Shown: piece after piece, positions 5,333-64,000 of the stretch
Layout of the letters: every line of letters starts with the position of its first letter
How positions within the stretch are numbered: position 1 is the stretch's first letter
Sequence record: PQ799574.1
Reading direction: 5' to 3' (one strand)
Source of the DNA: Escherichia phage vB_EcoM_Maryam
Length of the DNA: 64,000 bases
Program-made: the position numbers and the translations under genes
Notes under the pieces: generated by a model
Seen by the model: the letters and a program-made list of their open reading frames with translations, nothing else
Told to the model about the DNA's origin: nothing
The model's database searches: none

Positions 5333-6029
<697 letters not shown>

Positions 6030-6041
6030 TTTCACAAAGTT

Positions 6042-6074
6042 GTTTACATGGGGTTTTAGTAGTGATACTATTAC
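6042..6074 (+). promoter_or_regulatory. T4-type early promoter (-35 GTTTAC, -10 region AGTGATACTATTAC)
   Basis: GTTTAC plus extended -10 at the usual spacing; A/T-rich upstream; first copy of a direct repeat. Confidence 0.6.
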
Positions 6075-6107
6075 CCTATCAAAACAAATGTGAAATTGGA
6101 GAACAAA

Positions 6108-6341
6108 ATGAAAACGTATCAAGAATTTATTGCTGAAACTGCTGATGTAAAAGTTGAGTTTATTTACACTGGCAAGAAAGATAAAATGGGTGAAATGCCT
6201 CATGGAGTTCTTCGTGATGCATTAGATGATTTCGGTCAACTCGGTGGTGAAGAGTTTGGCGATTACTTTGTTATCTATGGCCCGGCAAAAGTCATTGAGA
6301 AATGGGCTGATAAATATAAATCAATTTTTCGTAAAAAATAA
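6108..6341 (+). CDS. internal protein (ipI position) with capsid-targeting N-terminus
   Basis: N-terminus MKTYQEFIAE equals the T-even internal-protein capsid targeting sequence; body differs from T4 IPI; alternative start 6090. Confidence 0.65.
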   Translation: MKTYQEFIAETADVKVEFIYTGKKDKMGEMPHGVLRDALDDFGQLGGEEFGDYFVIYGPAKVIEKWADKYKSIFRKK

Positions 6342-6374
6342 GTTTACTTTTAGATAGGGTAGTGATACTATTAC
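6342..6374 (+). promoter_or_regulatory. T4-type early promoter, second copy of the 6042 repeat
   Basis: GTTTAC and identical 22-mer agtgatactattaccctatcaa as at 6061-6082. Confidence 0.6.
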
Positions 6375-6399
6375 CCTATCAACTACCGAGGAGAATAAA

Positions 6400-7354: not shown

Positions 7355-7427
7355 TGGGAATTAGCCAAGTTGGTAAGGCACTGGATTTTGATTCCAGGAT
7401 GCAAAGGTTCAAGTCCTTTATTCCCAG
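7355..7427 (+). tRNA. tRNA-Gln (anticodon UUG)
   Basis: cloverleaf folded by hand: 7-bp acceptor tgggaat/attccca, anticodon loop ttTTGat, T-loop ttcaagt. Confidence 0.85.
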
Positions 7428-7428
7428 C

Positions 7429-7512
7429 GCGAGAATGGTCAAATTGGTAAAGGCACAGCACTTAAAATGCTGCGGAATGATTTCCTTGTGGGTTCGAGTC
7501 CCACTTCTCGCA
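7429..7512 (+). tRNA. tRNA-Leu (anticodon UAA)
   Basis: acceptor gcgagaa/ttctcgc, anticodon loop ctTAAaa, long variable arm, encoded CCA. Confidence 0.85.
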
Positions 7513-7520
7513 CCAAATTT

Positions 7521-7594
<74 letters not shown>

Positions 7595-7604
7595 ATTTAA
7601 TTTA

Positions 7605-7678
7605 CTCCGTGTAGCTCAGTTTGGTAGAGCGCCTGATTTGGGATCAGGAGGTCCAAGGTTCAAATCCTTGTATGGAGA
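7605..7678 (+). tRNA. tRNA-Pro (anticodon UGG)
   Basis: D-arm agctcagtttggtagagc, anticodon loop ttTGGga, T-loop ttcaaat. Confidence 0.8.
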
Positions 7679-7680
7679 CT

Positions 7681-7767
7681 GGAGGTGTGGCAGAGTGGTT
7701 GAATGCACCGGTCTTGAAAACCGGCAGTCGCTCCGGCGACTCATAGGTTCAAATCCTATCGCCTCCG
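7681..7767 (+). tRNA. tRNA-Ser (anticodon UGA)
   Basis: acceptor ggaggtg/cgcctcc, anticodon loop ctTGAaa, long variable arm, T-loop ttcaaat. Confidence 0.8.
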
Positions 7768-7774
7768 TAATTTC

Positions 7775-7847
7775 GCTGATTTAGCTCAGTAGGTAGAGCA
7801 CCTCACTTGTAATGAGGACGTCGGCGGTTCGATTCCGTCAATCAGCA
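7775..7847 (+). tRNA. tRNA-Thr (anticodon UGU)
   Basis: acceptor gctgatt/aatcagc, anticodon loop ctTGTaa, T-loop ttcgatt, CCA follows. Confidence 0.85.
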
Positions 7848-7851
7848 CCAA

Positions 7852-7925
7852 GGCCCTGTAGCTCAATGGTTAGCAGCAGTCCCCTCATAAGGGAAAGGTT
7901 ACCAGTTCAAATCTGGTCTGGGTCA
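7852..7925 (+). tRNA. tRNA with anticodon CAU (Ile-2 by position in T-even cluster, or Met)
   Basis: anticodon loop ctCATaa, T-arm accag-ttcaaat-ctggt, CCA follows; D-stem and top anticodon-stem pair imperfect. Confidence 0.6.
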
Positions 7926-7937
7926 CCAAATTAATTA

Positions 7938-8021
7938 GGGGAGTTATCCCGTAGAGGTAGCGGTGTGGACTGTAAATCCATTGTCATTGCGACTCGGGTG
8001 GTTCGACTCCATCACTCCCCA
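7938..8021 (+). tRNA. tRNA-Tyr-like (anticodon GUA, long variable arm); possibly pseudo-tRNA
   Basis: acceptor ggggagt/actcccc perfect, anticodon loop ctGTAaa, variable arm resembles bacterial tRNA-Tyr, T-loop ttcgact, CCA follows; D-arm pairs poorly. Confidence 0.5.
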
Positions 8022-8070
8022 CCAATTTATGACTCGTCGTGAGACGCTCAGTTCTTTATTAGGGACTGAT

Positions 8071-8736
8071 ATGCATTTTTATCTTTATAAAATAACAAAT
8101 AAAATTAATAATAAAATTTATATTGGTGTGCATTCTACCGAAAATTTAGATGATGGATATATGGGTTCTGGTAAATTATTAAAAAGAGCCCAAGACAAGT
8201 ATGGTATAGAAAATTTTTCTAAAGAAATATTAGAGTATTTTGATGATAAAGAATCTATGCTTGAAGCCGAGAAAAATATTGTCACAGAAGAGTTTTTAAA
8301 TAGACCAGATGTGTATAATTTAAAACTTGGCGGTGAAGGTGGATGGGACCATATAAATATTCCTGGGATGCTAAACCAGAAGAAAGATGCTAGCTTAAAA
8401 GGAGCTAAATCGTTTAAATCGCGTTTTGAAAATGATATTTTACTTCAAGAAAAATATCGTAAAATTGGTTCAAATGTATTTAAACGTTTGTGGTCAACTC
8501 CTGAATACAAGGAAAAATTTTTAAATAATAGCAGATTTTTAAATAAGCATCATACTCCTGAAACTATTAATAAAATGAAAGAAATTCATGTTAAAAATAA
8601 TCATCAGAAAGGAGAAAAGAATTCCCAATTTGGTATGATGTGGATTCATTCATTAGATGAAAAAGTTTCTAAACGTATTAAGAAAACTGACCCAATTCCA
8701 GAAGGATGGTTTAAAGGTCGAAAAATGAAATTTTAA
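8071..8736 (+). CDS. segB: GIY-YIG homing endonuclease (SegB-like)
   Basis: 221 aa from ATG 8071; YLYKITN...KIYIG motif; embedded in tRNA cluster like T4 segB; upstream ORF extension to 7963 overlaps a tRNA. Confidence 0.75.
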   Translation: MHFYLYKITNKINNKIYIGVHSTENLDDGYMGSGKLLKRAQDKYGIENFSKEILEYFDDKESMLEAEKNIVTEEFLNRPDVYNLKLGGEGGWDHINIPGMLNQKKDASLKGAKSFKSRFENDILLQEKYRKIGSNVFKRLWSTPEYKEKFLNNSRFLNKHHTPETINKMKEIHVKNNHQKGEKNSQFGMMWIHSLDEKVSKRIKKTDPIPEGWFKGRKMKF

Positions 8737-8739
8737 TTA

Positions 8740-8812
8740 CGGGGCATAGCTCAGAAGGAAGAGCAAGGACCTTCTAAGTCCTGGGTCGTAGGTTCGATCC
8801 CTACTGCCTCGA
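8740..8812 (+). tRNA. tRNA-Arg (anticodon UCU)
   Basis: acceptor cggggca/tgcctcg, anticodon stem aggac/gtcct with loop ctTCTaa, T-loop ttcgatc, CCA follows. Confidence 0.85.
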
Positions 8813-8833
8813 CCAATTATAAGTGAGGAAAAT

Positions 8834-13438: not shown

Positions 13439-14407
<969 letters not shown>

Positions 14408-14501: not shown

Positions 14502-14975
14502 ATGAAAACATATCAAGAATTTATTACTGAAGCAGCTATTAATTCTCAAATTATTGCTGAATCTTTTACTGATCTTTTGAAATTTAAAAAAGGACAGAAA
14601 ATCACTGCTGTACTGGATGATGGTACAGAAGTTGAGATGGATGTACAAGGATATAATTATGCAGTAGATGGAAAACTGTATAATAAATCTCATGCTAAAT
14701 TTGATTCATTTGACGACTTTGTTAATACAGTTGAAGATGAAAAAACTCGTAGATCCATTGCAACTGGTGATGCTAAGGTTCTTATGGCACATGGTCATGA
14801 ACGCATTCGCGCTAAACAGAATAAAATGGGTGAAGATAATTTCGCATTAGTTGGTTATCAATCTGGTAAACAAACTTATGGCTATCAACGTACTGCTACC
14901 ATGTATAATAAAAATGGTAAAATTGCCTTTGTGAATAGTAAAGGTTCTATTCAGTACGTTAAATCGTTCAAATAA
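14502..14975 (+). CDS. internal protein (ipII/ipIII position) with capsid targeting sequence MKTYQEFITEA
   Basis: 157 aa; canonical CTS N-terminus; sits next to gene e. Confidence 0.6.
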   Translation: MKTYQEFITEAAINSQIIAESFTDLLKFKKGQKITAVLDDGTEVEMDVQGYNYAVDGKLYNKSHAKFDSFDDFVNTVEDEKTRRSIATGDAKVLMAHGHERIRAKQNKMGEDNFALVGYQSGKQTYGYQRTATMYNKNGKIAFVNSKGSIQYVKSFK

Positions 14976-45932: not shown

Positions 45933-45992
45933 ATGAAACTGTCTAAAGATACTACTGCTCTGCTTAAAAATTTCGCTACTATTAACTCGTAA
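45933..45992 (+). pseudogene. 45: truncated sliding clamp gene 45: first 19 codons then stop
   Basis: MKLSKDTTALLKNFATINS matches recalled gp45 N-terminus; expected GIMLKSG continuation is replaced by TAA; rest of the 228-codon gene absent. Confidence 0.8.
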
Positions 45993-46062
45993 TTAAAATC
46001 GCAGCAGTTTTTTCATTCAGAACATCGTTAGAAGCTTTGATGATGTAAGTTACTTTAGACAT
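45982..46062 (-). pseudogene. motA: truncated motA: first about 25 codons on minus strand, then unrelated codons and stop
   Basis: minus-strand MSKVTYIIKASNDVLNEKTAAILIT matches recalled MotA N-terminus; similarity ends at 45988, abutting the gene 45 fragment. Confidence 0.75.
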
Positions 46063-46159
46063 TTTGTTTCTCCGTAGTTGATAAGACTATAATACCATAA
46101 GTTAAAGCAGAAGTAAACTTTATTTTGAGCTCTTTTTCAAGAGCTCTGGTAAAAATTAC

Positions 46160-46375
46160 TTAGATTGATAGGTCTTTAATCTTAGCTATTAAAACAGCTT
46201 TTCCTTCACGAAGTTTTTCCAGTTTACGACCATTAGAGCCGCGAACTACTAAGGAATTTATCTCCACTTCCAACCAATTTAGTTTTTCAACTAGTTCTTT
46301 ACGTTTAGCATTCATGCCGGGTTTAACTTTACCGAAACGGGTGGTAGCGTTTTGAGTATTTTTCATCTTATTCAT
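46160..46375 (-). CDS. hypothetical basic protein
   Basis: 71 aa; ggag RBS. Confidence 0.5.
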   Translation of the reverse strand: MNKMKNTQNATTRFGKVKPGMNAKRKELVEKLNWLEVEINSLVVRGSNGRKLEKLREGKAVLIAKIKDLSI

Positions 46376-46414
46376 TTTAATCTCCAGTTATTTTTCTGTA
46401 TCAGTGTTGATAGG

Positions 46415-46447
46415 GTAATAGTACCATGGAATGCTTTGGTTGTAAAC
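46415..46447 (-). promoter_or_regulatory. T4-type early promoter, minus strand (GTTTAC ... TGGTACTATTAC)
   Basis: reverse complement shows GTTTAC, 15-nt spacer, extended -10; shares ctattaccctatcaac with the promoters at 6061 and 6361. Confidence 0.65.
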
Positions 46448-46469
46448 CGTTTTGTGAAAAAAATTTTAA

Positions 46470-46497
46470 ATAAAAAAGGGAGAGCCGAGGCTCTCCC
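46470..46497 (-). terminator. rho-independent terminator, minus strand (gggagagcc hairpin + T run on minus)
   Basis: 9-bp GC stem; A run precedes on plus strand, so T run follows on minus. Confidence 0.65.
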
Positions 46498-46502
46498 TAA
46501 AA

Positions 46503-46652
46503 TTACTGCATGACTGTGATAACTGTCATGATAACACGTTGAATTCCGAACGCAAGAAGACCTCCTGCTACGGCTGGAACAACGCCTAAACCAGCCAGTA
46601 AAATGCTACCAGATACTAATGCAGCGCTTGTAATACCAATGAATGGACTCAT
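46503..46652 (-). CDS. small hydrophobic membrane peptide
   Basis: 49 aa MSPFIGITSAALVSGSILLAGLGVV...; ATGA overlap with gene 52 stop. Confidence 0.4.
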   Translation of the reverse strand: MSPFIGITSAALVSGSILLAGLGVVPAVAGGLLAFGIQRVIMTVITVMQ

Positions 46653-47977
46653 TTGATTTCCTCTAAATCTTTGGTGTATTCGGTAACTACATCAGTAGTT
46701 TTCCAATATTCGTTTTCTTCTTTTTTAGCTTTAGCTTCTTCAGCAAGTTTCTTTGCTTCATCGGAAGTCATATGAAAAATATTCATTCCAACTAGTTTAT
46801 CAACATAAGAAGAATACATATCGATTTTCGAAAGTTCTTCGGTCAGTTCTTTACGAGTTTTACCCTGTACAACAATTTCACCTGAAATTACTTTCTTAAT
46901 GAAATGTGCCTTGGCAAAGGCTAAACGAAAAGCTGATTCAGTTTCTTTAATTTTGTTATCAATTCGTTTTTGGACATAAGTTTTACGAACTTCAACGAAG
47001 TCTTTAATTAAATCAACTACGTTATCGTAAACTTGTAGTTTTCCTTTCTCATTAATAACCGTAATATTCTGAGAACGACGCTCAATCAACCCAAAGTCTT
47101 TCATAATTTTTGCATGGCGTTCTTCTTCATTATCGCTCAAAGAATATTCTTTACGGAATTTAACTTTGAATCCAAAACCGTGCTCACCGCAAGCATCATC
47201 CCATGTAATGAAGCCTTTATCTTCAAGTGGGTCTAAGATTTTACTCACATAAGTTTCACGATCATACTTATATGGAATCTCAGTGATATGCATTTGAGTT
47301 CGTGAAGTAAACTTATATGTTCCGCGAATTTCATATTGACCATCAATCTCAACGACTTCACCACGAAATTCTGGGAATTCTACCTTCGGTTTAGTTACTT
47401 TCTTTCCTTGAAGAGCTTGCAGTACAGCTTTCTTGACAGAAGAAACACTATGAGGAAGAATGTAAGTTGCATAACCAGTTGCAATACCGGAAACGCCATT
47501 AAGAAGAACAGTAGGAATAATAGGTAAATAGAAAGCAGGCGGAATGTGTTCTTTATCTTGATGTACCGGAGCATATTCAGTATCTTTATATACGTTATAG
47601 AAATTTTTACTTACACGAGCAAAAATATAACGACTTGCTGCTGCTTTTTGGACGGTACGAGAACCAAAGTTTCCTTGACCATCTAACAGAGGAAAATTAT
47701 TATTCCAAGTGTTAGCCATCAAAGCACCTGCGTCTTGTGCAGAGTTTTCGCCATGGTGATATCCAAGGTCCGCTACACCACCTGCAATAGAAGCAAGTTT
47801 GTGAAACTTATCTTTATTTCCTCGTGCCAAATCAAGAGCTCGAGCAATAACAAATCGTTGAACTGGCTTAAATCCATCAATCATATTTGGAATGGCACGA
47901 TTTTCAACCGTGTACATAGCATAAGCCAATGCTTCATTATCAATGATACTTTTTAAATCGCGATTATTCAGTTGCAT
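46649..47977 (-). CDS. 52: DNA topoisomerase II medium subunit gp52 (GyrA-like)
   Basis: 442 aa; conserved GyrA-like N-terminal region (PNMIDGFKPVQRFVIARAL). Confidence 0.9.
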   Translation of the reverse strand: MQLNNRDLKSIIDNEALAYAMYTVENRAIPNMIDGFKPVQRFVIARALDLARGNKDKFHKLASIAGGVADLGYHHGENSAQDAGALMANTWNNNFPLLDGQGNFGSRTVQKAAASRYIFARVSKNFYNVYKDTEYAPVHQDKEHIPPAFYLPIIPTVLLNGVSGIATGYATYILPHSVSSVKKAVLQALQGKKVTKPKVEFPEFRGEVVEIDGQYEIRGTYKFTSRTQMHITEIPYKYDRETYVSKILDPLEDKGFITWDDACGEHGFGFKVKFRKEYSLSDNEEERHAKIMKDFGLIERRSQNITVINEKGKLQVYDNVVDLIKDFVEVRKTYVQKRIDNKIKETESAFRLAFAKAHFIKKVISGEIVVQGKTRKELTEELSKIDMYSSYVDKLVGMNIFHMTSDEAKKLAEEAKAKKEENEYWKTTDVVTEYTKDLEEIK

Positions 47978-47981
47978 AAAT

Positions 47982-48122
47982 TTACCATACTAGTGAATGT
48001 AGTGCCATAATAACATCAGAAATGAAAAGCACGACTTGAATTAATCCGAACATTACTCCATAATATAGTGCTACTAATAAAGTAGCAAGGGCTAATGAAT
48101 AGCCCAAGATTTTCTTAATCAT
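47982..48122 (-). CDS. small membrane peptide
   Basis: 46 aa hydrophobic ORF MIKKILGYSLALATLLVALYYG... Confidence 0.4.
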   Translation of the reverse strand: MIKKILGYSLALATLLVALYYGVMFGLIQVVLFISDVIMALHSLVW

Positions 48123-48273
48123 TAGTAGATAACAACACAAATGTTAAATATGCACACATACCTTGGGCTAAAGCTTGCGAAAACACGCTGCTGGCATCAA
48201 TACAGATAGTTAAAACACATGCTACTATCCAACAAATAAATGAAATAACTCCTAATAATTTTGCAATATTCAT
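48115..48273 (-). CDS. small membrane peptide (ac position)
   Basis: 52 aa MNIAKLLGVISFICWIVACVLTIC...; overlaps the next small ORF. Confidence 0.4.
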   Translation of the reverse strand: MNIAKLLGVISFICWIVACVLTICIDASSVFSQALAQGMCAYLTFVLLSTND

Positions 48274-48360
48274 ATTTTCCTCACTGGCGTCCGAAGACGC
48301 CTTTAGTTTTAAGATTATTACGATAGAACTGCATCACATGTTCGTTATGGAAATTACTCA

Positions 48361-48819
48361 TTAATATGCCTGCAAAACAAATTTAAAGTTATCAGCCAAC
48401 ATACGGTTCATTTCTTCAAGTGTTTGATACTCAGAATGATGATTACGAGTAAACGCCAAAGCTAACTGACCTTTACCAAATCCTGTCGTCAGAGGTTTCA
48501 TCTTAGAAGCAGGCAGATAAAATACTGTGTATGGAACATTGTTATTTGCAATAGTACGTGCAAGCTGAGACCGACGTTGACGAATATGACTTAGAACTGC
48601 ACTGAATCCTTGCTTAGAACGCTGATTACCTACATAAAATCGTGCAGACACACATGGATTACTAAATGGACGACCATCTAATTTACTTACTAAAAAGTAA
48701 AATCCAGGTTTAGATAAAATGTCTTTATGCGGAGTTCCCAAAAACCATTCACCGCCCTTGATTGTGCCAATAACAGTAGCGCCTGCATTATTCAGATCAG
48801 TAACAGTCATGTATTTCAT
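48361..48819 (-). CDS. hypothetical protein (ndd position, possible nucleoid disruption protein)
   Basis: 152 aa from ATG 48819; assignment by position and size only. Confidence 0.4.
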
Positions 48820-48879
48820 ATTAATTTCCTCTAAATTATTTTCTACTCCAAGGCCGCATGAATACACGCGGCCATTAAA

Positions 48880-49095
48880 TTAATCGTCGCAGTCGACGCT
48901 CAATTCCCAAAACTCTTCTACGGTATAAGTTTCAATATCATTTTCAATACAGAAACGTTCATTACTATTGTTTGCTAAAGTAGCGTTAACTGTCATTTTC
49001 TCGCTGGTACTCTTAAGAGGTGAAATACGAATTAACTGATCACCGTTATCTAAACAAAAAATTTCACCAACTTTTACATCTTTAAAACTTTTCAT
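48880..49095 (-). CDS. hypothetical protein
   Basis: 71 aa. Confidence 0.45.
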   Translation of the reverse strand: MKSFKDVKVGEIFCLDNGDQLIRISPLKSTSEKMTVNATLANNSNERFCIENDIETYTVEEFWELSVDCDD

Positions 49096-49210
49096 AATTC
49101 ACCTCAAGGAGTATAAAATCCGAATGCAGTTGTTGACCATCCCATCCAGTATGGGAAATTTGCACCAATGTAAAACATAAGAATATAAAACCAACCGCTC
49201 AGCAAATTCA

Positions 49211-49429
49211 TCATTTTACACCGTTCCAAATTGTTTCAACCACGGATTTTAAGCCATTTTGATGAATGTCCATTCCAACTACCGCCATCAAATAGATTCC
49301 AACTACAACTGAACCTAAGGCAAAAATCAGCATGAAAATGAATAAAGCCGGAAAAATATTATCGAAAAACCATTCAATAAATGTAAAAGCACTGCGTTTA
49401 CGCTTCATATTTTCCTCACATAAATCCAA
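49211..49429 (-). CDS. small membrane protein
   Basis: 72 aa; TM helix. Confidence 0.45.
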   Translation of the reverse strand: MDLCEENMKRKRSAFTFIEWFFDNIFPALFIFMLIFALGSVVVGIYLMAVVGMDIHQNGLKSVVETIWNGVK

Positions 49430-49529
49430 AGTAAACGTTTAATACATCAATCATTAAAACGATTGGGAATATACTCAAAACAACTAAAATTATAATTATA
49501 TTCCATATAGCTTTAATAATCTTTTTCAT
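49416..49529 (-). CDS. small membrane peptide
   Basis: 37 aa from ATG 49529 with ggagg RBS; longer ORF-track version runs through a promoter. Confidence 0.35.
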   Translation of the reverse strand: MKKIIKAIWNIIIILVVLSIFPIVLMIDVLNVYFGFM

Positions 49530-49554
49530 TTTGTGTTCCTCCGTGGTTGATAGG

Positions 49555-49587
49555 GTAATAATACCACAGAGGAACAGTCTTGTAAAC
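49555..49587 (-). promoter_or_regulatory. T4-type early promoter, minus strand (GTTTAC ... TGTGGTATTATTAC)
   Basis: reverse complement gttgtttacaagactgttcctctgtggtattattaccctatcaacc. Confidence 0.65.
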
Positions 49588-49834
49588 AACTTTTTTAAAA
49601 ATATTCGTAATAAATGTGAATACCAATCACTACTGCCGAAACTTGCGCAACCCACCACGCACAAGCAATAAGTACAGAATTAAAAATTTTCATAATAACC
49701 TCATCACAAAAGTAAATGTTAAACAAATTACTGGAATACTAATTAACCAAACAAAACACCACCACAATGAACTCATAGTTCAATCTCAGCGATTTTCATT
49801 TTATTCTCCAAATCTGTATCAGTAGTTGATAGTT

Positions 49835-49866
49835 GTATAGTACCACGGTCCTTGTGGTATGTAAAC
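49835..49866 (-). promoter_or_regulatory. T4-type early promoter, minus strand (GTTTAC ... TGGTACTATAC)
   Basis: member of repeated promoter cassette family. Confidence 0.65.
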
Positions 49867-49881
49867 CATTTTGTGAAATTT

Positions 49882-50439
49882 TTAAATGGAAAGATACCAT
49901 CCATTGTAGTTGCTTTTTCTTACAACCTTACGAAGGTCTTCTCTATCACCGATGAACTTCGGAGTGTACTGGATGACACCTGGATGAATTTCTTTAGTGT
50001 TGAATATAATTATACAGTCCGCGACCTGGTGATTTAGAATGGGCCCTAGATTTATTCCAGAACCATATGGATACTCTCCGCTGCATCCTGTTGTTACAGA
50101 AATCCAACGTGAGTCAGTTTGATGTGTCTTAACTTCTACACGGAGCCCGCAATATTTTGGATGTGCTAAAACATCCCATGCATATGTGTACGGATCATTG
50201 ACATCTTCTTGGCCTTTATTGACATATCCGCTTAGCCAATCTGCTACAAAAAACTCTGCGTACACAGCGATACGGCATCTTTCGATAACTTCTGTCTTAT
50301 CCTGATTTGGGTTTTGTTTTAAAGAGTATCTTGCAGTATCAGCAATTTTGACCTTCATTTCACCAGTCAAGTCACTGTTCGATAGGGTAAATGTCGGAAT
50401 CTGAAATAGTCTCTGTAGCCCCGGATTCGTTTTCTGCAT
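49882..50439 (-). CDS. denB: endonuclease IV DenB (by position and size)
   Basis: 185 aa, between the ndd-region ORFs and rIIB. Confidence 0.6.
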   Translation of the reverse strand: MQKTNPGLQRLFQIPTFTLSNSDLTGEMKVKIADTARYSLKQNPNQDKTEVIERCRIAVYAEFFVADWLSGYVNKGQEDVNDPYTYAWDVLAHPKYCGLRVEVKTHQTDSRWISVTTGCSGEYPYGSGINLGPILNHQVADCIIIFNTKEIHPGVIQYTPKFIGDREDLRKVVRKSNYNGWYLSI

Positions 50440-50493
50440 TTAAACTTTCCTTTATGTCGGAATCACTGATATTCATATAATAAATCATAAAAC

Positions 50494-50512
50494 AAAAGGG
50501 CCGAAGCCCTTA
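50494..50512 (-). terminator. hairpin terminator (gggc-cgaa-gccc) with A/T runs on both sides
   Basis: GC stem with CGAA loop between convergently ending ORFs. Confidence 0.5.
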
Positions 50513-50514
50513 TT

Positions 50515-50709
50515 TTATTTGAATTGTGCAATTCTTTTCTCTAGACATTCAGCATAAGATTTCATTGAGATGAACTGTGAAAGCAGCAGTTCTTGCTCAA
50601 CTGCACTAACCGTTAGAAACTTTGTGCTTTCTAAAAATTTGCTCAGTGCATTAATTTTGAGCATTAATTGATCGTATTCTTCTTTTACTCGTGCTTGATA
50701 ACCTAACAT
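50515..50709 (-). CDS. hypothetical protein
   Basis: 64 aa. Confidence 0.45.
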   Translation of the reverse strand: MLGYQARVKEEYDQLMLKINALSKFLESTKFLTVSAVEQELLLSQFISMKSYAECLEKRIAQFK

Positions 50710-50737
50710 AATTTTCCTTAGTTAAGGGCCGAAGCCC

Positions 50738-51676
50738 TTATTTAAATTGTTCAGTAACGTCTTCAACTACTTCATATTGGCAGGTACGCATTTTAGCATC
50801 ATTGTAATCAATCGGAATTGATACTACATCACGTGGATGTACTTTAACTTTTACAACTCGGCTGGTTGAACTGCCAAAGTGACGAATATAAGATTTAGAA
50901 CACACATGCAGACCACGAGAACAAGTTTGTGTATCATCGTCATTCACACGAGTACGCGGCATTTTAACTACTTTACCAGGACTGTTATCAAAGGTATTTG
51001 AGTGACAGTCAAAGTAATTGCTGCGAACTACTTTCCAAGCATAGAAGTAACCATCTTCTGTAATTTCAATATCGTTTGCTACCAAGAAATCAAAAAGTCG
51101 AGATACCGCTTTCTGGCTTGGGTTTTCCAGCAGATTTTCCAAGAACGGAAAATAAAATTCAAAGTTTTCGCCTTTTTCCATCGAATCAAGAATACGATCA
51201 ACCAAACCAGACCGCAATTCAATATTTTGATAGAATAAGCTTCCACCTTCAATTCGAACATCGCCGGAAATATATTTTTCAACAGCACGACGAACATTAA
51301 TTTTTTGTGCCGCTTCTTCCAGCTTATCTGCTACAAGCAGATTAAGAATTTCCTGGAAGTTTGAATGAGTATTAGGAGTTGCGTTATAAGTTACACCGTC
51401 AACAGTAATTGAAATGAATTTTTTAGATGCATTCCAAATAATGTCAGATTTAGCAACTGGAGCAATAACTGCATCGCTATTAACTTTAACTGTAATATCA
51501 CCGCTAATAGTAACTTTAGAGCGTTTAGCTTCTTCAGCATTTTTCAAAACACGACGGATTGTGTCAACCGATACATCCTTCCAATAAGCTAATTCCTGCT
51601 GAGTGTAATTACCACTTGAATACAGTTTAACAATTTCAGCTTGTTCGTTTTTGGTCAGGCATTTAATATTGTACAT
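50738..51676 (-). CDS. rIIB: rIIB membrane-associated protein
   Basis: 312 aa; directly downstream of rIIA. Confidence 0.85.
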   Translation of the reverse strand: MYNIKCLTKNEQAEIVKLYSSGNYTQQELAYWKDVSVDTIRRVLKNAEEAKRSKVTISGDITVKVNSDAVIAPVAKSDIIWNASKKFISITVDGVTYNATPNTHSNFQEILNLLVADKLEEAAQKINVRRAVEKYISGDVRIEGGSLFYQNIELRSGLVDRILDSMEKGENFEFYFPFLENLLENPSQKAVSRLFDFLVANDIEITEDGYFYAWKVVRSNYFDCHSNTFDNSPGKVVKMPRTRVNDDDTQTCSRGLHVCSKSYIRHFGSSTSRVVKVKVHPRDVVSIPIDYNDAKMRTCQYEVVEDVTEQFK

Positions 51677-51687
51677 AATTTTCCTTA

Positions 51688-53865
51688 TTAGGCCGCAAGG
51701 GCCTTCATAGTTTTAGCGATTTGGGAAACTTCATCATCACTTAAAGAGTTGCGATATCCGATGAAGTCGGAAACAATACGGAATTTCTTGGTAAACTCAG
51801 CAACCATTTTATCACTGTTTTTTGAAGCATTATTTGATAATACATCAAAAAGATTAGTTACTGTCCAGATGTCATGACCGATGGTATCTTTTCCACCATT
51901 AAAATATACACCGCGCAATGAACTAACTATATTAGCGAGTCGTGTATATTCTTCAGAAACTTCATCTGTACTGAAGTACTTCATCATAAAATCTAGTTCA
52001 GGATACTTGATAATTTTATCAATATATCGTTGAGCTGAACTTGAATAACCTACATACTTATCATAATCTACATCATCAAAAGCATCTACATATAAATCAC
52101 GCAAAGCTTCAAAAATACATTGGCACTGACCGAGTTCTTTTACCTTTTTCTGTAAAAGCGGACGAATAACATAAAATTCATTAATGCCAATAAGATTAGC
52201 CATACGAATCAAAATATTCATAGATGGATGACAAAGAGATGTAGTACCATCCATAGAGAAAATATCAGAACGATGCATATACGCTACATAACCAGTAATT
52301 TCATCTGCTTCTGATGTGAGCGTAAATAATTCCTCTTTTTCCCATCGCCCATCTTTAATTTCAAACTTAAATGCTGTAGCAGCTTTAGGACGAGGAGCTT
52401 TACTTTTAACTACCTTTGGAATATAGCTTTTAACTAAAGCTTCAATTTCTGACAAATAATGAATGTTAACTTCATCACTTTCAAACATCGCCATAATATC
52501 AGGAAGTAAATCAATCTGCGATTCTACTTCCGGATTAATAAACAGAAGACGCTCATTGTGATGAATATTCAAAGTGTTATTAAATTCACTATCATCTAAC
52601 GCGTGTGCTAATCCACGGACAATATTAACACGATTTTTAATATTATCAATAACGATATTAATTTTTGTTGCATTAATACCAAACAGACGATAACTTGATG
52701 CAACGGCTGAAGTTTCATGACTTTGCTTAATGCGCTTCAGTCGAGGGTCAAGATTTACTTCATACACAACTCCTGCATTACATAACTTACTATCAGGTTC
52801 AAACATGCTTTGCATCTTCTTATATGACAGATTTTTAGTCGTAAATTTGACTGAATTACTAATCATATAATCTCGAGCAGAATACCCCATCTTCATCAAT
52901 TCACGATATGTATGACGGGGAGATGTGGATTCTTTAAATCGTTTTACATCTTCATTAAATGCTTTCTCACTGAGTTCTTTAACTCGTTCAATGATATTTT
53001 TACGAGTGCGATCATCTAGTGAAAGAGCCTCGCGAGATGGAGCAATATCAAGTGAACCCATTGGAAACTTAATGTAATTCACTTCATTGCGAATGCTTAG
53101 CCAGTTACGGTCTCTAATAACACCATCGATAGGATAAACAATACCGCCATAGATAGCATATAATCCACCACGATCAGGCCAGTATCTTTCTGGATTTACA
53201 CCATAATAATCATCAAAATCCGGAAAATAATCAATTTCACGGTCAAGACCATTAATGATAGCCAAATCTTTGAACGGTCGCATGATATAAGAAACTTCAT
53301 AAGCAAAGTTTCTAAAGTCTTTTTCTTCAACTGGAACTACGATTTCAATACCAGTTTTATCATCTGGACCCATTTCTTTTACGAATGTAGGTTTAATCTG
53401 TGGACCATCACCATCCATGTAAGCTACATAACCACGAATTTCACCTTTATGATACGAAGTAATACTAAACGTATCAGTATAACTAAACGGAGATTTAGAA
53501 CCTAAACCAAATCCGCCAATAAAGTCATTAGATTCAGCTTTAGATGAACTGAAGTATGAATTATACAACCCAGGAGAATTATCATCACCTTGAATATCAA
53601 AATCACTCATACCCGGACCAAAATCTCGACAAACAAATCGCGGGTCTAAACGTCCAGGAACTTGTATGATAAATTTCTCTGGATTTCCATTAAGTGCATG
53701 AGCATCAATCATGTTAGTAATCAATTCACGGACTACTGCGCGAATCTTGTTTGTATACAAATCAGACGACAGAATTTTAAATACTTTAGGAGATGCTGTG
53801 ATGCTAAATGCTTTCGATTTAGAACCATTACCAAGAATTGTTTCTTTTTCAGTGGTGATAATCAT
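51688..53865 (-). CDS. rIIA: rIIA protein
   Basis: 725 aa; GHKL-ATPase-like N-terminal region. Confidence 0.9.
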
Positions 53866-53875
53866 AATTTCCTCA

Positions 53876-54079
53876 TTAATTCATATTACGCTTAATAACT
53901 TCAGCAACTTCTAGTAGTTCATCTTTAGTTGCGGTGTCGGATTGAATTTTATCTCTAATATCTTTAAAGCGGTTTTTAAATTCTTCAGCTTCTCCCATAT
54001 CGAAAAAGCGTTGAATGATTCTATATTCTCGATGAACTGCTTTATCAAAAAGTTCTAAATTTACTTTATATGATTTCAT
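53876..54079 (-). CDS. hypothetical protein (rIIA.1 position)
   Basis: 67 aa; gagga RBS. Confidence 0.45.
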
Positions 54080-54100
54080 TTCAATATCCTCATTTGCCCA

Positions 54101-54134
54101 ATTAATTATACCACATCCTTGTGGTAAAGTAAAC
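54101..54134 (-). promoter_or_regulatory. T4-type early promoter, minus strand (GTTTAC ... TGTGGTATAATTAAT)
   Basis: reverse complement cagtagtttactttaccacaaggatgtggtataattaat; would drive rIIA.1-rIIA. Confidence 0.65.
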
Positions 54135-55954
54135 TACTGGCTCATCCATTCTTTACGAAGGTCAGCATTATCTCCCATGAGCATTTCAAAAAGCTCTTTC
54201 CAGTTCTCAGGAAGTTTAACAACATCATATACTGGGTTTTGAATCATCTCACGATATTCAGATTTTTCCAAAGAGCCAAGTCCCTTAATATAACGGATGC
54301 TATGTTTAGGTAGAGCATCTTTGGCACTCTCATATTCAGCGACTGTATAAAACCATTCTTGTTTTTTACCGACCTGAGCGATGATTACAGGAGTTTTGAC
54401 AAAGCGAATTCGTCCTTGCTCAAACAATTCTGGCCAATTACTAAAAAATCCAAGCAGAGAAGGATAAATGCTTCCTAGACCATCATGGTCAGCATCAGTC
54501 ATAATAGCAATATTATGATAATTCAAGTTTTCAGCTTTTTCACCGAGAACTAATCCAGTGATTGCGCAAATATCAAATAGTTCTTTGTTTTTAAGCATAT
54601 CAGCATATGACATACCCCAACTATTAAGAACTTTACCACGCAATGGATAACCACCATGAAGTTCTTTATCACGAACATCAATAAGATATCCGATAGCCGA
54701 ATCACCCTCAGTCAAGAAAAGAGTCGTGTCAGCATCTTTACCACAAAGATTCGCTTTAATATGTTTATGAACCTTAGCTTTAGAAGCCTTTTTAGCTGCT
54801 TTTGTTTCTGCTGCTTTTTCTGCTGCCAATTTACGAGCCAAAGCAGCTTCAATAATCGGCATTAGAATTGCTTCATTATTTAGAATAGCACGTGAAATCT
54901 TTTTAGCATCAAGCTGAATATGACTACGGATTTCACCAAATGGAGAAGTCAAACGCTCTTTAGTTTGAGAATCAAATCGCATGTTTTTCATATCACGAAC
55001 AAACATAACGATAGTCAAACATTCTTTAACACGTGCTTTAGTTACATCAATTTTGAATTTACGTTTGATTTGTGGAATAAGGTCTTCACAAATATCATCC
55101 ATAACACAGTCAATGTGATGGCCACCATTCTTAGTGTGAATGTTATTCACATAAGTTAATTGACGAAATCCATCCGGTGAACGACCAACCGCAATAGAAC
55201 AATTTTCTTGTTCTTGAACAATAGCATGTTCATCATACTGTCGTGCATATTTCTTAAAATTGCCCTGAACCTTTTTACCATTAAAGGTAAATTGAATATC
55301 AGGATAAACAACAGCAAGTGTCTGGAGACGATCTAGTGTAATATCAAGATAAACTTGGGACAGCTCATTAGTTTCAAATGACATAAAATCAGGAATGAAA
55401 GTAACACGTGTTCCTTTCCATTTTCCAGGAATATCTTCCCATGATTTATTTTCCATGCCATTTGAACAACGAACTACAATATTATTTTGACCATCACCCG
55501 TTTCACCAACAAACATCACAGAAAAAATGTTTGTCAAACTAGAACCAACACCATTCATACCGCCGGTGACACGTTCTTTATCATCACCAAAGTTACCACC
55601 CGCTTTTGGAATAGTCCAAGCAGCAACTGGACCAGGAATTTCTTCACCGGTAGGTGTTTTAACCATCGCTTGTGGAATACCACGACCGTTATCTTCAACT
55701 GTTACTTGATTGTTTTTAATAGTAACATTAATTTTATTTGCGAATTTAAACTTAGTACGAATACCTTCATCGACTGAGTTATCGATAATTTCATCAATAA
55801 GCTTAACAAGACCAGGTACATACTGAACACTTTCCCATTTACCAAACAGAAAGCGCTCATGCATTTCATTAGCAGAAGAGCCAATGTACATGCCACTACG
55901 CTTTTTGATATGTTCAATATCGCTCAGAATTTTAATTTCATTCTTAATCATCAC
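54134..55954 (-). CDS. 39: DNA topoisomerase II large subunit gp39 (GyrB-like), unsplit
   Basis: 606 aa continuous ORF; GHKL ATPase motifs incl. VEDNGRGIP; Toprim region; no gene 60 split. Confidence 0.9.
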   Translation of the reverse strand: MMIKNEIKILSDIEHIKKRSGMYIGSSANEMHERFLFGKWESVQYVPGLVKLIDEIIDNSVDEGIRTKFKFANKINVTIKNNQVTVEDNGRGIPQAMVKTPTGEEIPGPVAAWTIPKAGGNFGDDKERVTGGMNGVGSSLTNIFSVMFVGETGDGQNNIVVRCSNGMENKSWEDIPGKWKGTRVTFIPDFMSFETNELSQVYLDITLDRLQTLAVVYPDIQFTFNGKKVQGNFKKYARQYDEHAIVQEQENCSIAVGRSPDGFRQLTYVNNIHTKNGGHHIDCVMDDICEDLIPQIKRKFKIDVTKARVKECLTIVMFVRDMKNMRFDSQTKERLTSPFGEIRSHIQLDAKKISRAILNNEAILMPIIEAALARKLAAEKAAETKAAKKASKAKVHKHIKANLCGKDADTTLFLTEGDSAIGYLIDVRDKELHGGYPLRGKVLNSWGMSYADMLKNKELFDICAITGLVLGEKAENLNYHNIAIMTDADHDGLGSIYPSLLGFFSNWPELFEQGRIRFVKTPVIIAQVGKKQEWFYTVAEYESAKDALPKHSIRYIKGLGSLEKSEYREMIQNPVYDVVKLPENWKELFEMLMGDNADLRKEWMSQ

Positions 55955-56020
55955 TTATCCTCGTTTGGTTTCGGGAATATTATACTCCGGTAATCATAAA
56001 GCTAAAGGCCCGAAGGCCTT

Positions 56021-56290
56021 TTATTTAAAACGAATAGTTGAATCCTTAAAGAACAGCCCAGAACATACTGTTCCTTCTACTTTCTGCCCGGTAGGTCCAA
56101 TAGCACGAAATCCAGTATGTTGGAAATCATTTTCAGAGCAACCGAACCAGTTATATCCAGTGATTTCAATATTCGTAAAACCACTTGATGATAAAATTTT
56201 AGTTGCATTATCAGCATCAGTACATCCTACTAAAGATACTGCTAATACTAATGCTGCAATAGAACGATTAATATATTTCATAATTTTCAC
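56021..56290 (-). CDS. lipoprotein
   Basis: 89 aa; signal peptide with lipobox LVGC. Confidence 0.5.
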   Translation of the reverse strand: MKIMKYINRSIAALVLAVSLVGCTDADNATKILSSSGFTNIEITGYNWFGCSENDFQHTGFRAIGPTGQKVEGTVCSGLFFKDSTIRFK

Positions 56291-56658
56291 TTAAATTTAA
56301 TGGCTTGAAGAAGACTAATAACTCTCAAGCGACTTCTTTCATCTTTAACTGTAAAGGAAAGAGGGTCACCAGATTTCATAGTGATAGTGCATCCAAAATC
56401 AAAATTTTCGGGAACTTCTTTGAAGAAGTCAAATTCTTCATCATAAATTAGAACATTACTCTGACAACTATGAAGAATTTTTCCATCATTTCCAGATGCT
56501 GTACTAATCATTGTAACATTATGACCTTTCATATCTTCAACGATAAATTCACTAGTCAATATTACAGCATTAATAGAACTATTCCTATTACTAGCAGAAA
56601 GTAGAAATTTCTGTTCTTCACCTTCACGAATGCAATATTTCTTACCAATTTTAAACAT
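56287..56658 (-). CDS. hypothetical protein
   Basis: 123 aa. Confidence 0.5.
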   Translation of the reverse strand: MFKIGKKYCIREGEEQKFLLSASNRNSSINAVILTSEFIVEDMKGHNVTMISTASGNDGKILHSCQSNVLIYDEEFDFFKEVPENFDFGCTITMKSGDPLSFTVKDERSRLRVISLLQAIKFK

Positions 56659-56660
56659 AA

Positions 56661-56837
56661 TTACCCTTTAAGTAAATCGTAAAATCCACCATTCACATGC
56701 TTAGGAGCAGAAGGCCGACGAGTAGACAAACGATGACATTTAGGGCAAACATCATTTTCTCGTTCAGAAATCTTTTTAATTTTTTCATATTCATGCCCGC
56801 AGTCTTCAGATTGGCATTTATAATCATACATTGGCAT
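56661..56837 (-). CDS. zinc-ribbon protein (CxxC...CPxC)
   Basis: 58 aa MPMYDYKCQSEDCGHEYE...CPKC; below the ORF-track cutoff. Confidence 0.45.
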   Translation of the reverse strand: MPMYDYKCQSEDCGHEYEKIKKISERENDVCPKCHRLSTRRPSAPKHVNGGFYDLLKG

Positions 56838-56839
56838 AA

Positions 56840-57265
56840 TTATTCCTTAAAGTGTGCTTTCAGCATTTGATACAAGGACCATGCCTGTTCATTATTTTCA
56901 ATAGTAACTTTCATGACAGGAAATTCTGTGAAATCTTCTATTTGTTCTTGCTCTTTCTCTTCCTGCTCTTGCTCTTCAGCTGCCTGATATGGATTTTCCA
57001 CTTCATCAAAGAACTCGGCTTCGTTAGTAGAGAGCCAGATAAAGTTTTCGTCAAGGATATCACCATGTGTTGCATATCCAATTGTGCCAGTAAATGACAT
57101 AATTTTAGTAGGACGACCAAGATGGTCAACATCTAAAATTTTAAAAGGATGCATACCTAAACGTCGTGCATAAATTCCGTTATCAGTATGGTCTTTAATA
57201 AAAGCTTCTTGAGCTTGTTTATTTTTAAATTGATACCATTTATTAACTTCAAATTTAATAGCCAT
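56840..57265 (-). CDS. hypothetical acidic protein
   Basis: 141 aa. Confidence 0.5.
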
Positions 57266-57480
57266 TAATAAATTTCCTTCCAGTAAGTTGTGCCATCTTC
57301 AGTAATTTCACGAAATACACCGTAAATTGGTTGTTTATCACCAACCTTTTCATACACATAAACCGAAGTCAAGTGAGTAAACTTAACGGTATGTTCCTTT
57401 TGAACCACTACCAAATCTGGATCAAATAATACATCTTCAAATTCGTCATTAGTGCAATTCTGAACAATTTTACGTTTCAT
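57265..57480 (-). CDS. hypothetical protein
   Basis: 71 aa. Confidence 0.45.
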
Positions 57481-57493
57481 TACAATTTCCTCA

Positions 57494-57763
57494 TTAATTA
57501 AACATTGGAGCGATACGTTTCAGAAGAGTAGCAGCACCTTTAGCGAATTTTACATCATGAAAAACAGTTTCTTCTTCTGTAACAACTCGAACTTTAATAT
57601 TTTCACAATCCCAATTTTTACGAACAATCTTCAAAAGCTGCAGTAAATCTTTACATTCAGCAATATCGATAACACATCCACGAGAATCTTCCATTATCGC
57701 ACGATAACCGTAAGCCATACCATAATCGTTGAAAGATTGCTCGATGATAATTAAGTTTTCCAT
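57494..57763 (-). CDS. hypothetical protein
   Basis: 89 aa from ATG 57763; leader nearly identical to that of the 10287 gene. Confidence 0.45.
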   Translation of the reverse strand: MENLIIIEQSFNDYGMAYGYRAIMEDSRGCVIDIAECKDLLQLLKIVRKNWDCENIKVRVVTEEETVFHDVKFAKGAATLLKRIAPMFN

Positions 57764-57860
57764 TTTATTCTCCAAGTTGTTTTCTGTATCAGTAGTTGAT
57801 ATTGATATAGTACCATAATCAACTACTGATGTATATAGTTTTATGAAAAAATTTTAAACT

Positions 57861-58352
57861 TTATGCATAGCGAGCTTTGCTGTAGTGTTTAATCCAACTT
57901 TCAGGAATGACTTTGTATGTTCCTAAAAATACCGCGTTGTATAACTTAACGCCATCTTCTACCCATTGATCAGTAATGTATGCACACATAGCGCGAGTAC
58001 GGTTAACAACACCTTCCTCACCTTCAGTAAATTCAAACTCATAAGGAGCAACGAACTTGATAGCTTGACCGAGTTTCCACTTAAAGTCTACACCTACATG
58101 CGAAGTATCAATCGTTTCAATTCCTTTAGCGGGAACAGCTTTCAAAAACGCAGGCTCAAGAAATTTCCATCGAACATAACCAAACTGAGGTTTAGACATT
58201 CCATCTTTAGGAATGATACGCACTTTTACTTCAGAATCTTCATCTTTAACACCATGTTTAAGCTGAATGCTTACGACTTCAACCAATTTTCCTGCTGCTT
58301 TAGAACGGGATTTATCAGATACACGAGCAATTTCACCGATATTAATATTCAT
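57861..58352 (-). CDS. hypothetical protein (paralog of next ORF)
   Basis: 163 aa; C-terminal ITDQWVEDGVKLYNAVFLGTY motif. Confidence 0.5.
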   Translation of the reverse strand: MNINIGEIARVSDKSRSKAAGKLVEVVSIQLKHGVKDEDSEVKVRIIPKDGMSKPQFGYVRWKFLEPAFLKAVPAKGIETIDTSHVGVDFKWKLGQAIKFVAPYEFEFTEGEEGVVNRTRAMCAYITDQWVEDGVKLYNAVFLGTYKVIPESWIKHYSKARYA

Positions 58353-58425
58353 AATTATCTCTCACTTGTTAAAAAGATTTTATACTCCGCAGGACCATTA
58401 TACTCTGGTCCCAAGAGTTTGTAAA

Positions 58426-58926
58426 CTAGCTTACACGAACATTAATCACTGCGCTGCGAGGAACTACGGAGTACTCTCCAGCATGAACTACGTTCAGAAG
58501 TTCAACACCATCTTCAATCCACTGATCAGTTACCCAACCGCCAATCGGATTCGCGAATGGACGACGAATATAAACTGCCTTACACAACAAATCAGTCGGG
58601 TCTTCAATTTTTTCAACTGGTGTTACATACATAGAAACTAAATCCATATCAATATGGGATTTTTCTTGTTCTTCTTTTTCAATTTCTGTCAATAAATTGA
58701 AATCTTCTTCATAGATGATGAATGATGATACCCTTCCATAATAGTTTCTAATTTCCATGTACACTGTACCAATGAGAATTCCGCTATTAACACTAATAAC
58801 AGTAAAAGGATATCCGCCAGTTGTACCAAGAAGTTCCCAAAACTTGCTATCAGTCGTATTCGACATTGTCTGGAAATCAATTTCAGATGGTTTTTTCATT
58901 TGATACGTAGTATTAATTTTAATCAT
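58426..58926 (-). CDS. hypothetical protein (paralog of previous ORF)
   Basis: 166 aa; C-terminal VTDQWIEDGVELLNVVHAGEY. Confidence 0.5.
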   Translation of the reverse strand: MIKINTTYQMKKPSEIDFQTMSNTTDSKFWELLGTTGGYPFTVISVNSGILIGTVYMEIRNYYGRVSSFIIYEEDFNLLTEIEKEEQEKSHIDMDLVSMYVTPVEKIEDPTDLLCKAVYIRRPFANPIGGWVTDQWIEDGVELLNVVHAGEYSVVPRSAVINVRVS

Positions 58927-58935
58927 AATTTTCCT

Positions 58936-59448
58936 TTAATCTAAGGTAATAAAGCCTTTTAATTCGGCATGCGATTTGCGAAACATTACTTGATGCCCAC
59001 CAATGATAACTTGATCATCTGGCACTTCATAAATCGCAATGTACATTCCACGATCTTTTAAGTCTTCACGCTCTTCTCGAGTAAACCATCTCATTATATC
59101 ATATTCACTAGCGAAAGCAAAATGATATAATGCAATAAACCACAATGGAATATAATTTTCAATTCGTGAATAATCTTTATTCCATTTAGTTTTAATAGCA
59201 TCATTAGCATTTTCAACTAATAACTTATCATCGTGTGGAATAGGAATACTTTCATGACTTTCATAATCATTGCTATGATGATGAAATGATGATGAATTAA
59301 TACCGCAAAATTTTAGCCAAGTTCGAGTTTTCATAGAATCAAATCCACGATAAGGAGTTGATTGAACACATAACTCTTGCCTAATTTTCATTATACCACT
59401 ATCATCATTTAATGCGCTAAACGATGATTCAACACGATAAATTTTCAT
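58936..59448 (-). CDS. hypothetical protein
   Basis: 170 aa from ATG 59448 with gagga RBS; longer ORF-track version overlaps the promoter. Confidence 0.5.
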   Translation of the reverse strand: MKIYRVESSFSALNDDSGIMKIRQELCVQSTPYRGFDSMKTRTWLKFCGINSSSFHHHSNDYESHESIPIPHDDKLLVENANDAIKTKWNKDYSRIENYIPLWFIALYHFAFASEYDIMRWFTREEREDLKDRGMYIAIYEVPDDQVIIGGHQVMFRKSHAELKGFITLD

Positions 59449-59472
59449 TTTATTATCCTCAGTAGCTATGGT

Positions 59473-59505
59473 GTTATAATACCACAACTAACCGAGGAAG
59501 TAAAC
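59473..59505 (-). promoter_or_regulatory. T4-type early promoter, minus strand (GTTTAC ... TGTGGTATTATAAC)
   Basis: reverse complement gttgtttacttcctcggttagttgtggtattataac. Confidence 0.65.
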
Positions 59506-59511
59506 AACTTT

Positions 59512-60922: not shown

Positions 60923-60928
60923 ATATCC

Positions 60929-62556: not shown

Positions 62557-62557
62557 A

Positions 62558-63313: not shown

Positions 63314-63344
63314 ATTTTTCTCACATCTTACGGACGATTGACTA

Positions 63345-63378: not shown

Positions 63379-63434
63379 AATTTTATGAAAAATGCTTTAA
63401 AAATTTCATGGTATAATGAATCTAAGTCCTTCCA

Positions 63435-63992: not shown

Positions 63993-64000
63993 TGATTTTA

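Follow-up and report, generated by a model that had tools for sequence, protein, structure and literature searches.

The DNA analyzed here, referred to below as the window, is a 64,000-nt stretch of the genome of Escherichia phage vB_EcoM_Maryam (PQ799574.1), a Tequatrovirus. Its + strand carries, in order, gp3, gp1, 57A, 57B, a 77-aa open reading frame (ORF), trna.4, trna.3, trna.2, and a tRNA cluster (7355-8815), which is also the gene order of T4. The stretch from 57B to trna.4 is 100% identical to that of phage vB_EcoT_BCU-2 and 98 to 99% identical to those of KIT03 (99.3%), RB18, teqhal, and others. Both 57B and trna.4 are conserved, and they form the left and the right anchor, respectively, of a variable locus. 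The features considered in this work are listed below, where PeSL denotes a promoter/stem-loop type of element.

5571-6029, + strand: gene 57B, Acb1 anti-CBASS nuclease family (Pfam PF23474, 2.7e-60; T4 57B position)
6030-6107, + strand: upstream PeSL-type element, with −35 GTTTACA (6042-6048), extended −10 TGATACTAT (hexamer 6066-6071), hairpin (6030-6095), and Shine-Dalgarno sequence GGAG (6098-6101)
6059-6082, + strand: left copy of the exact 24-nt core GTAGTGATACTATTACCCTATCAA, putative crossover zone
6108-6341, + strand: ip6 (ipVI) internal head protein gene, 77 aa (phrog_8111 "internal virion protein," 3.9e-51, residues 1-77)
6243-6317, + strand: allele-defining block of ip6, codons 46-70 (predicted strands 46-49 and 54-59, predicted helix 60-69)
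6339-6399, + strand: downstream PeSL-type element, with −35 GTTTACT (6342-6348), −10 TACTAT (6366-6371), hairpin (6353-6380), and Shine-Dalgarno sequence GAGGAG (6388-6393)
6359-6382, + strand: right copy of the exact 24-nt core GTAGTGATACTATTACCCTATCAA
6400-6585, + strand: trna.4, small predicted membrane protein (phrog_1692, 6e-35; T4 trna.4 position)
7963-8736, in the tRNA cluster: GIY-YIG homing endonuclease gene, SegB-like (phrog_314, 2.4e-51; T4 segB position)
14502-14975: second leader-bearing ORF, 157 aa, beginning with MKTYQEFITEA (phrog_3155 "internal virion protein"; T4 ipIII position)

The 57B gene directly upstream of the ip cassette encodes a full-length Acb1 anti-CBASS protein, and thus the variable Ip locus adjoins a second counter-defense gene. 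On the other side, the homing endonuclease gene is located 1.6 kb downstream of ip6, and its true start is probably further downstream than listed since the ORF overlaps tRNA-Tyr (7938-8024). Homing-driven co-conversion could aid the spread of neighboring ip alleles. Far from this locus, gene 45 (sliding clamp), with its start at about 45934, is broken off after about 18 codons near 45990, and the region 46000-64000 holds, on the opposite strand, the genes of topoisomerase gp52, rIIB, rIIA, and gp39, with genes 43, 42, and b-gt missing. The break in gene 45 (45934-45990) looks like a misjoin or a rearrangement in the source assembly.

The ip6 gene and its product

The product of the 77-aa ORF begins with MKTYQEFIAE. 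When it was aligned with T4 IPI by BLASTP, the alignment was limited to the first 16 residues; the two proteins belong to different PHROG families (8111 versus 4363), and no Pfam match was found for the window protein, while T4 IPI matches PF11634 at 7.3e-54. A first-pass annotation, made from the sequence of the window, had described this gene as encoding the capsid-targeting sequence on a body unlike that of T4 IPI, and the description holds. The counter-scenario considered in that annotation, near-identity to IPI together with a lack of cassette polymorphism, differs from our findings on both counts. Sequence comparison thus supports the view that a gene at the ipI position encodes a protein with a putative capsid-targeting leader that is not IPI. 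Its sequence identifies the gene between the repeats as the already named ip6 (ipVI) of T4-like phages rather than a new gene, and GenBank records use the name Ip6 in JK1, VR26, and VR7 and ipVI in PST. Together with ip5, it was reportedly named by Repoila et al. in 1994, in line with the record annotations. The gene also lies directly upstream of trna.4 in JK1, PST, KAW1E185, SholemSchwarzbard, and Bas37.

The leader of Ip6 comprises codons 1-10 (6108-6137) and is identical to residues 1-10 of T4 IPIII. The first-pass annotation had set this sequence beside IPI: it stands as a targeting leader, but MKTYQEFIAE is the leader of IPII and IPIII, and that of T4 IPI is different. T4 IPI starts with MKTFKEFTST, and its leader, which we take to be 19 residues long, is presumably removed to yield IPI*; PF11634 covers residues 20-95 of the protein. 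It has been reported that MKTYQEFIAE is also the IPII leader, that the 10-residue leader of IPIII suffices for head packaging, with residues 4 and 7 mattering for targeting, and that the gp21 protease cuts after L/I-x-E (PMC9026906). This protease motif is present in Ip6 as I8-A9-E10, with cleavage predicted after I-A-E. The predicted mature protein has 67 aa, a mass of 7.7 kDa, and a pI of 6.5, with 12 acidic versus 12 basic residues. In the window, the 157-aa ORF with the second leader (14502-14975) is positioned just after the lysozyme gene e (13913-14407), and its product shows no relationship to T4 IPII or IPIII outside the leader; it is not followed by any ipII- or denV-like ORF.

An AlphaFold model of the protein (pLDDT 83) shows a small alpha/beta domain, for which only generic structural neighbors were obtained, and sequence searches against Pfam, PADLOC, and PDB returned no match that would assign a function by homology. 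Since an exhaustive profile search over 1.8 billion representatives gave only 6 proteins, the Ip6 family is confined to T4-like phages. Other T4-like phages encode, at this same locus, homologues of the mature part with 68-70 and 78 aa, which share a C-terminal GP-x-x-I-[ED]-x-W motif.

Probable anti-restriction function and the two ip6 alleles

A function has been reported for an orthologue of Ip6. In the HIDEN-SEQ preprint (10.1101/2025.11.20.689424), bas37_0260 at the ipI locus of phage Bas37 is dispensable in restriction-free hosts, and its deletion renders Bas37 specifically sensitive to McrBC; the result comes from this single preprint and concerns the type IV restriction by E. coli K-12 McrBC. 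According to the annotation table of the preprint and the GenBank record, bas37_0260 is 234 nt long and lies between ip5 and the trna.4 homologue. Furthermore, each of the T4 proteins Ip1, Ip2, and Ip3 inhibits a single GmrSD-type (type IV) enzyme, and the authors of that study proposed that the other proteins of the two Ip loci act likewise (PMC12373910). The suggestion of the first-pass annotation that the window protein is a candidate anti-defense effector therefore gains from the anti-restriction activity reported for Bas37_0260, but the target indicated for the family is McrBC, not GmrSD.

In the resampling table of the same preprint, which was read for the ip locus of Bas37 (MZ501089; locus 664-1453), insertions in bas37_0260 are depleted in K-12 (log2 +5.04), and the values for ip5 (bas37_0261; −2.09) and 57B/Acb1 (bas37_0262; −1.56) are of the opposite sign. 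These values hint that ip5 and 57B/Acb1 of Bas37 matter in the clinical isolate used for the comparison in the preprint. A link between ip6 and the type of DNA glucosylation was also considered. The T2/T6-type beta-alpha-glucosyltransferase is annotated in KIT03, PST, and Bas37, and in KAW1E185 an 843-nt gene that lacks an annotation but has the same position was assigned to it by size; the enzyme is also encoded by RB5 and ime09, which lack ip6. The comparison was uninformative, as the gene occurs in both ip6-bearing and ip6-less phages, and the b-gt/gene 42 region is absent from the window.

The window protein and Bas37_0260 have the same length and align without gaps, with 64 of 77 residues identical (83%). 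Twelve of the 13 differences fall within codons 46-70, that is, 12 out of 25 residues in this block, and the thirteenth is D41N. Synonymous divergence follows the same division, with a dS of about 2.4 in codons 46-70 versus 0.08 in codons 1-45, and dN/dS in the block is 0.14. Positive selection was rejected as the cause: dN/dS is 0.04 to 0.35 everywhere, and the saturated dS of the block shows that it is old and not evolving fast. Judged by these rates, the window ip6 is, relative to that of Bas37, a mosaic of two old alleles and not a product of recent positive selection. The window allele (A) is the rarer one, found in 22 records, compared with 182 for the Bas37 allele (B). Which of the two alleles is present does not depend on the cassette upstream.

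Since 12 of 25 residues differ from the tested Bas37 allele, the target of the window allele may differ from McrBC. This leads to the strongest competitor of a shared target, namely, that Ip6 is an injected anti-restriction protein existing in Tequatrovirus as two ancient alleles side by side, in which codons 46-70 set the type IV enzyme that is blocked and would retarget the minority allele to an enzyme other than, or a range broader than, K-12 McrBC, for example, a GmrSD variant. We regard this as a tentative proposal. In its favor are the concentration of the differences in a single block, where dS is about 2.4 beside flanks at 0.08, dN/dS values well below 1 (0.04 to 0.18) for both alleles, the persistence of both alleles (22 and 182 records), the conservation of the A-type block in the more distant VR26-type phages, and the strict specificity of Ip1, Ip2, and Ip3 for one enzyme each (PMC12373910). 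Against it, the two alleles share 83% identity, their length, and the same predicted fold elements, and the relatives with allele A come from isolations on E. coli K-12 hosts. Such hosts normally carry McrBC. If retargeting were true, Ip6 would offer a compact model of the retargeting of an injected inhibitor through an intragenic module swap.

Promoter/stem-loop repeats and cassette polymorphism

The gene is bracketed by a direct repeat that the repeat finder placed at 6042-6082 and 6342-6382 (41 nt, 80% identical, 300 nt from start to start), and the exact core common to both copies is the 24-nt sequence GTAGTGATACTATTACCCTATCAA at 6059-6082 and 6359-6382. The first-pass annotation had pointed to a GTTTAC start and an identical 22-mer in both repeats. 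Both were confirmed: the 22-mer sits inside the exact core and occurs in the window as two exact copies and two with 3 mismatches, against 0 expected (100 shuffles). Of the spans proposed there (6031-6082 and 6342-6382), 6042-6082 and 6342-6382 stand, and the segment 6031-6041 (TTCACAAAGTT) proved to be single copy.

Both repeats match the sigma-70-like early promoter consensus TTTACW-N17-TAYWAT, which is that of the PST/T4 PeSL promoters (Comeau et al. 2014, PMC4122927). The promoter scan identified TTTACA-17-TACTAT with TG at 6043-6071 in the upstream copy, and pattern matching found GTTTACT-N17-TACTAT at 6342-6371 in the downstream one. The upstream hairpin (6030-6095) folds as RNA at −26 kcal/mol (z = −5.3 versus shuffles), and the downstream hairpin (6353-6380), with a 12-pair stem, folds at −17.4 kcal/mol (z = −3.3 versus shuffles). 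At the end of each element, a Shine-Dalgarno sequence precedes the ATG by 6-7 nt. Among relatives, the stems covary such that pairing is kept in GATAGGG/CCCTATC, GATGAGG/CCTCATC, and GATGGAGA/TCTCCATC. The −10 box is inside the hairpin, and therefore the whole stem would form only in transcripts reading through from upstream. Since no U-tract follows the hairpins and the terminator scan gave no intrinsic-terminator match, an attenuator role is taken here from the PeSL literature (PMC2839356). Taken together, these features support the assignment of the flanking repeats to the PeSL-type elements published in 2010 and 2014, and the downstream element (6339-6399) is predicted to drive trna.4.

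The flanking repeats belong to a family of about 20 early promoters scattered over the window, and three other promoter pairs are identical at 23 of 24 positions in the same core. Because so many such promoters are present and other pairs are equally similar, the similarity of the repeats by itself reflects the long T4 early-promoter consensus, and sequence conservation of the repeats does not alone demonstrate a role in recombination. Other early promoters were located at 10214, 25239, and 26678 (+ strand) and at 46447, 49587, and 49866 (− strand). These six share the extended consensus TTTCACAAA..GTTTACA..GTGGTACTATACAACTATCAAC and are mutually identical at up to 23 of 24 positions in the −10/+1 core; those at 46447 and 49587 have the TATTACCCTATCAAC tail in common with the ip6 elements.

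The content of the locus between 57B and trna.4 was compared for fourteen Tequatrovirus genomes and this window, with the phages given beside each arrangement below.

No ip gene: slur02
ip6 alone: this window, JK1
ipI alone: T4
ip5 alone: ime09, wV7
ip5 and ip6: PST, SholemSchwarzbard, Bas37
ipI and ip6: KAW1E185
ip5 and ipI: RB5
ip5 and ip7: T2
A 90-aa ip gene and ip7: FL12

The presence or absence of cassettes bounded by the repeats, as anticipated in the first-pass annotation, was thus seen in relatives, and the boundaries lie exactly at the PeSLs. In the phage collection, ip6 is present in 229 of 753 locus-matching records (about 30%), and most of them carry another ip gene upstream. Architectures were counted from a spread sample and with allele-specific 83-nt queries; junction-spanning BLAST queries were unreliable for this purpose, as the search joins pieces across an intervening gene. 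In 36 loci of other T4-like phages, leader-bearing proteins fall into at least 16 unrelated families, with 0 to at least 3 leader-bearing genes recognized per locus.

Thirty-two intergenic junctions were then aligned. In all of them (32/32), the 5′ half of the element goes with the gene upstream and the 3′ half with the gene downstream, the switch between parents occurs in the shared GTGATACTATTA core, and every junction consists of one PeSL. The part upstream of the −10 region exists in three main types (L1a, L1b, and L2) that track the upstream gene, and the element between 57B and ip5 of wV7 is a further variant of this half. The downstream half is R1 before ipI, ip5, and ip7, R2 before ip6, and R3 before trna.4. 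By this typing, the upstream element of the window is L1b+R2 and its downstream element is L2+R3, and the element between ipI and trna.4 in T4 is L1b+R3, joining the 5′ half of the ip6-upstream element to the 3′ half of the ip6-downstream element; the L1b+R3 element is likewise present in ime09, wV7, RB5, and slur02. When 6061-6360, one 300-bp unit, was removed from the window in silico, the remainder aligned with the empty site of slur02 over 727 nt without gaps and with 15 substitutions. The proposal of the first-pass annotation that the repeats provide a route for cassette exchange of the promoter-stem-loop type is supported by the switches in the core and by this empty site.

The three final codons and the stop of 57B (window region 6018-6041) recur unchanged in ip5 (GATTTAAAATAA, D-L-K-stop; SholemSchwarzbard region 2270-2300), and thus, in phages with two cassettes, the upstream repeat (L1) reaches about 12 nt into both coding regions. 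An attempt to tell insertion from deletion by the hairpin stability of native versus chimeric PeSLs was abandoned, since L1b+R3 still folds at −12 to −16 kcal/mol; such chimeras still fold because R2 and R3 share CCCTATC, and the only clearly weakened chimeric element was L1b+R1 of T2. Of 94 junctions at this locus in other T4-like genera, 24 lack a PeSL, being tight or overlapping (ATGA), and thus PeSLs are not the sole route to ip diversity. There, the stop codon of 57B is overlapped by the first ip gene (ATGA), which suggests translational coupling of the two in these genera.

It could be argued that the repeats are no more than a pair of working early promoters whose similarity is maintained by selection for promoter strength and that gene content varies by other routes, for example, co-conversion driven by the SegB-like homing endonuclease or illegitimate recombination. 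The promoter pairs that match at 23 of 24 core positions without flanking a known cassette fit this explanation, as do the homing endonuclease gene at 7963-8736 and the variation of ip genes in other genera with no PeSL between them. We nevertheless find it improbable, because all 32 junctions switch parentage exactly in the shared core, the empty site of slur02 equals the window minus exactly one repeat unit, and mini-circles joined within the PeSL have been found experimentally in RB49 and phi1 (PMC2839356).

Proposed cassette model and comparison with known systems

We consider it highly probable that the region is the ip6 cassette of the hyperplastic 57B-trna.4 (ipI) locus of Tequatrovirus, which is shuffled at PeSLs and whose product would be injected to block a type IV restriction enzyme. 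Each gene of the locus would be preceded by a PeSL, in which a sigma-70-type early promoter is overlapped by a hairpin and followed by a Shine-Dalgarno sequence. Homologous recombination in the 24-bp core around the −10 box could then delete, insert, or swap one promoter-plus-gene unit and leave the neighbors undisturbed, and the many gene combinations in relatives are ascribed to such recombination inside the shared core. As judged from T4 IPIII, Ip6 would be built into the prohead core by means of its 10-residue leader, cleaved by gp21 behind Glu10, and delivered to the host along with the phage DNA. There, it most likely acts by binding a modification-dependent (type IV) restriction enzyme and inhibiting it before this enzyme cuts the entering hydroxymethylcytosine DNA. 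In the case of the common allele, the enzyme is reported to be McrBC, from the work on the Bas37 orthologue, and the window allele may well have the same target. That Ip6 just fills the head, as a structural or DNA-condensing protein devoid of any anti-defense role, is very hard to credit: the ip6 orthologue is non-essential in Bas37, but it is conditionally required there on an McrBC+ host, mature Ip6 is near neutral (pI 6.5, 12 acidic versus 12 basic residues) and therefore not a polycation, and ip6 is absent from about 70% of related genomes.

The name of the gene, the PeSL shuffling model (2010 and 2014), and the anti-restriction function of the orthologue (2025) are already on record. Our additions are modest and consist of the half-element mosaic rule, the exact match of the empty site to the removal of one unit, the inclusion of shorter relatives from other genera in the Ip6 family, and the two-allele mosaic. 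The locus is a clear example of T4-like phages shuffling injected anti-restriction proteins at short shared promoter cores, and the Ip set carried by a phage is useful information for phage therapy and for host-range prediction.

Among known systems, the closest are Ip6/ipVI of Yersinia phage PST (NC_027404), JK1, VR7, and VR26, which represent the same 77-aa gene (83 to 100% protein identity) at the same position directly upstream of trna.4, with nothing essential differing. Bas37_0260 of phage KarlGJung (MZ501089) is an orthologue with the same locus, length, and flanking PeSLs and an identical leader; it differs in 12 of the 25 residues of codons 46-70 and is preceded by ip5, whereas ip6 of the window is preceded directly by 57B. 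T4 IPI/IPI* (PF11634) appears analogous to Ip6 in its genomic slot, its type of N-terminal packaging leader, and a head-packed and injected lifestyle, which for Ip6 is presumed, but the reported target of IPI is the GmrSD type IV enzyme and that of the Ip6 orthologue is McrBC. T4 IPII and IPIII, which inhibit two other GmrSD variants (PMC12373910), are encoded at another locus adjoining gene e, and their mature parts are unrelated to Ip6 despite the identity between the IPIII and Ip6 leaders. Finally, the ip6-flanking elements resemble the PeSL cassettes of RB49/phi1 and PST/T4 in combining an intergenic early promoter, a hairpin, and a Shine-Dalgarno sequence, in flanking variable small ORFs of a hyperplastic region, and in having breakpoints inside the element. 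Mini-circles and promoter and terminator activities have been demonstrated only for the RB49 and phi1 elements (PMC2839356), and the hairpin of the ip6-flanking elements overlaps the −10 box and lacks a U-tract.
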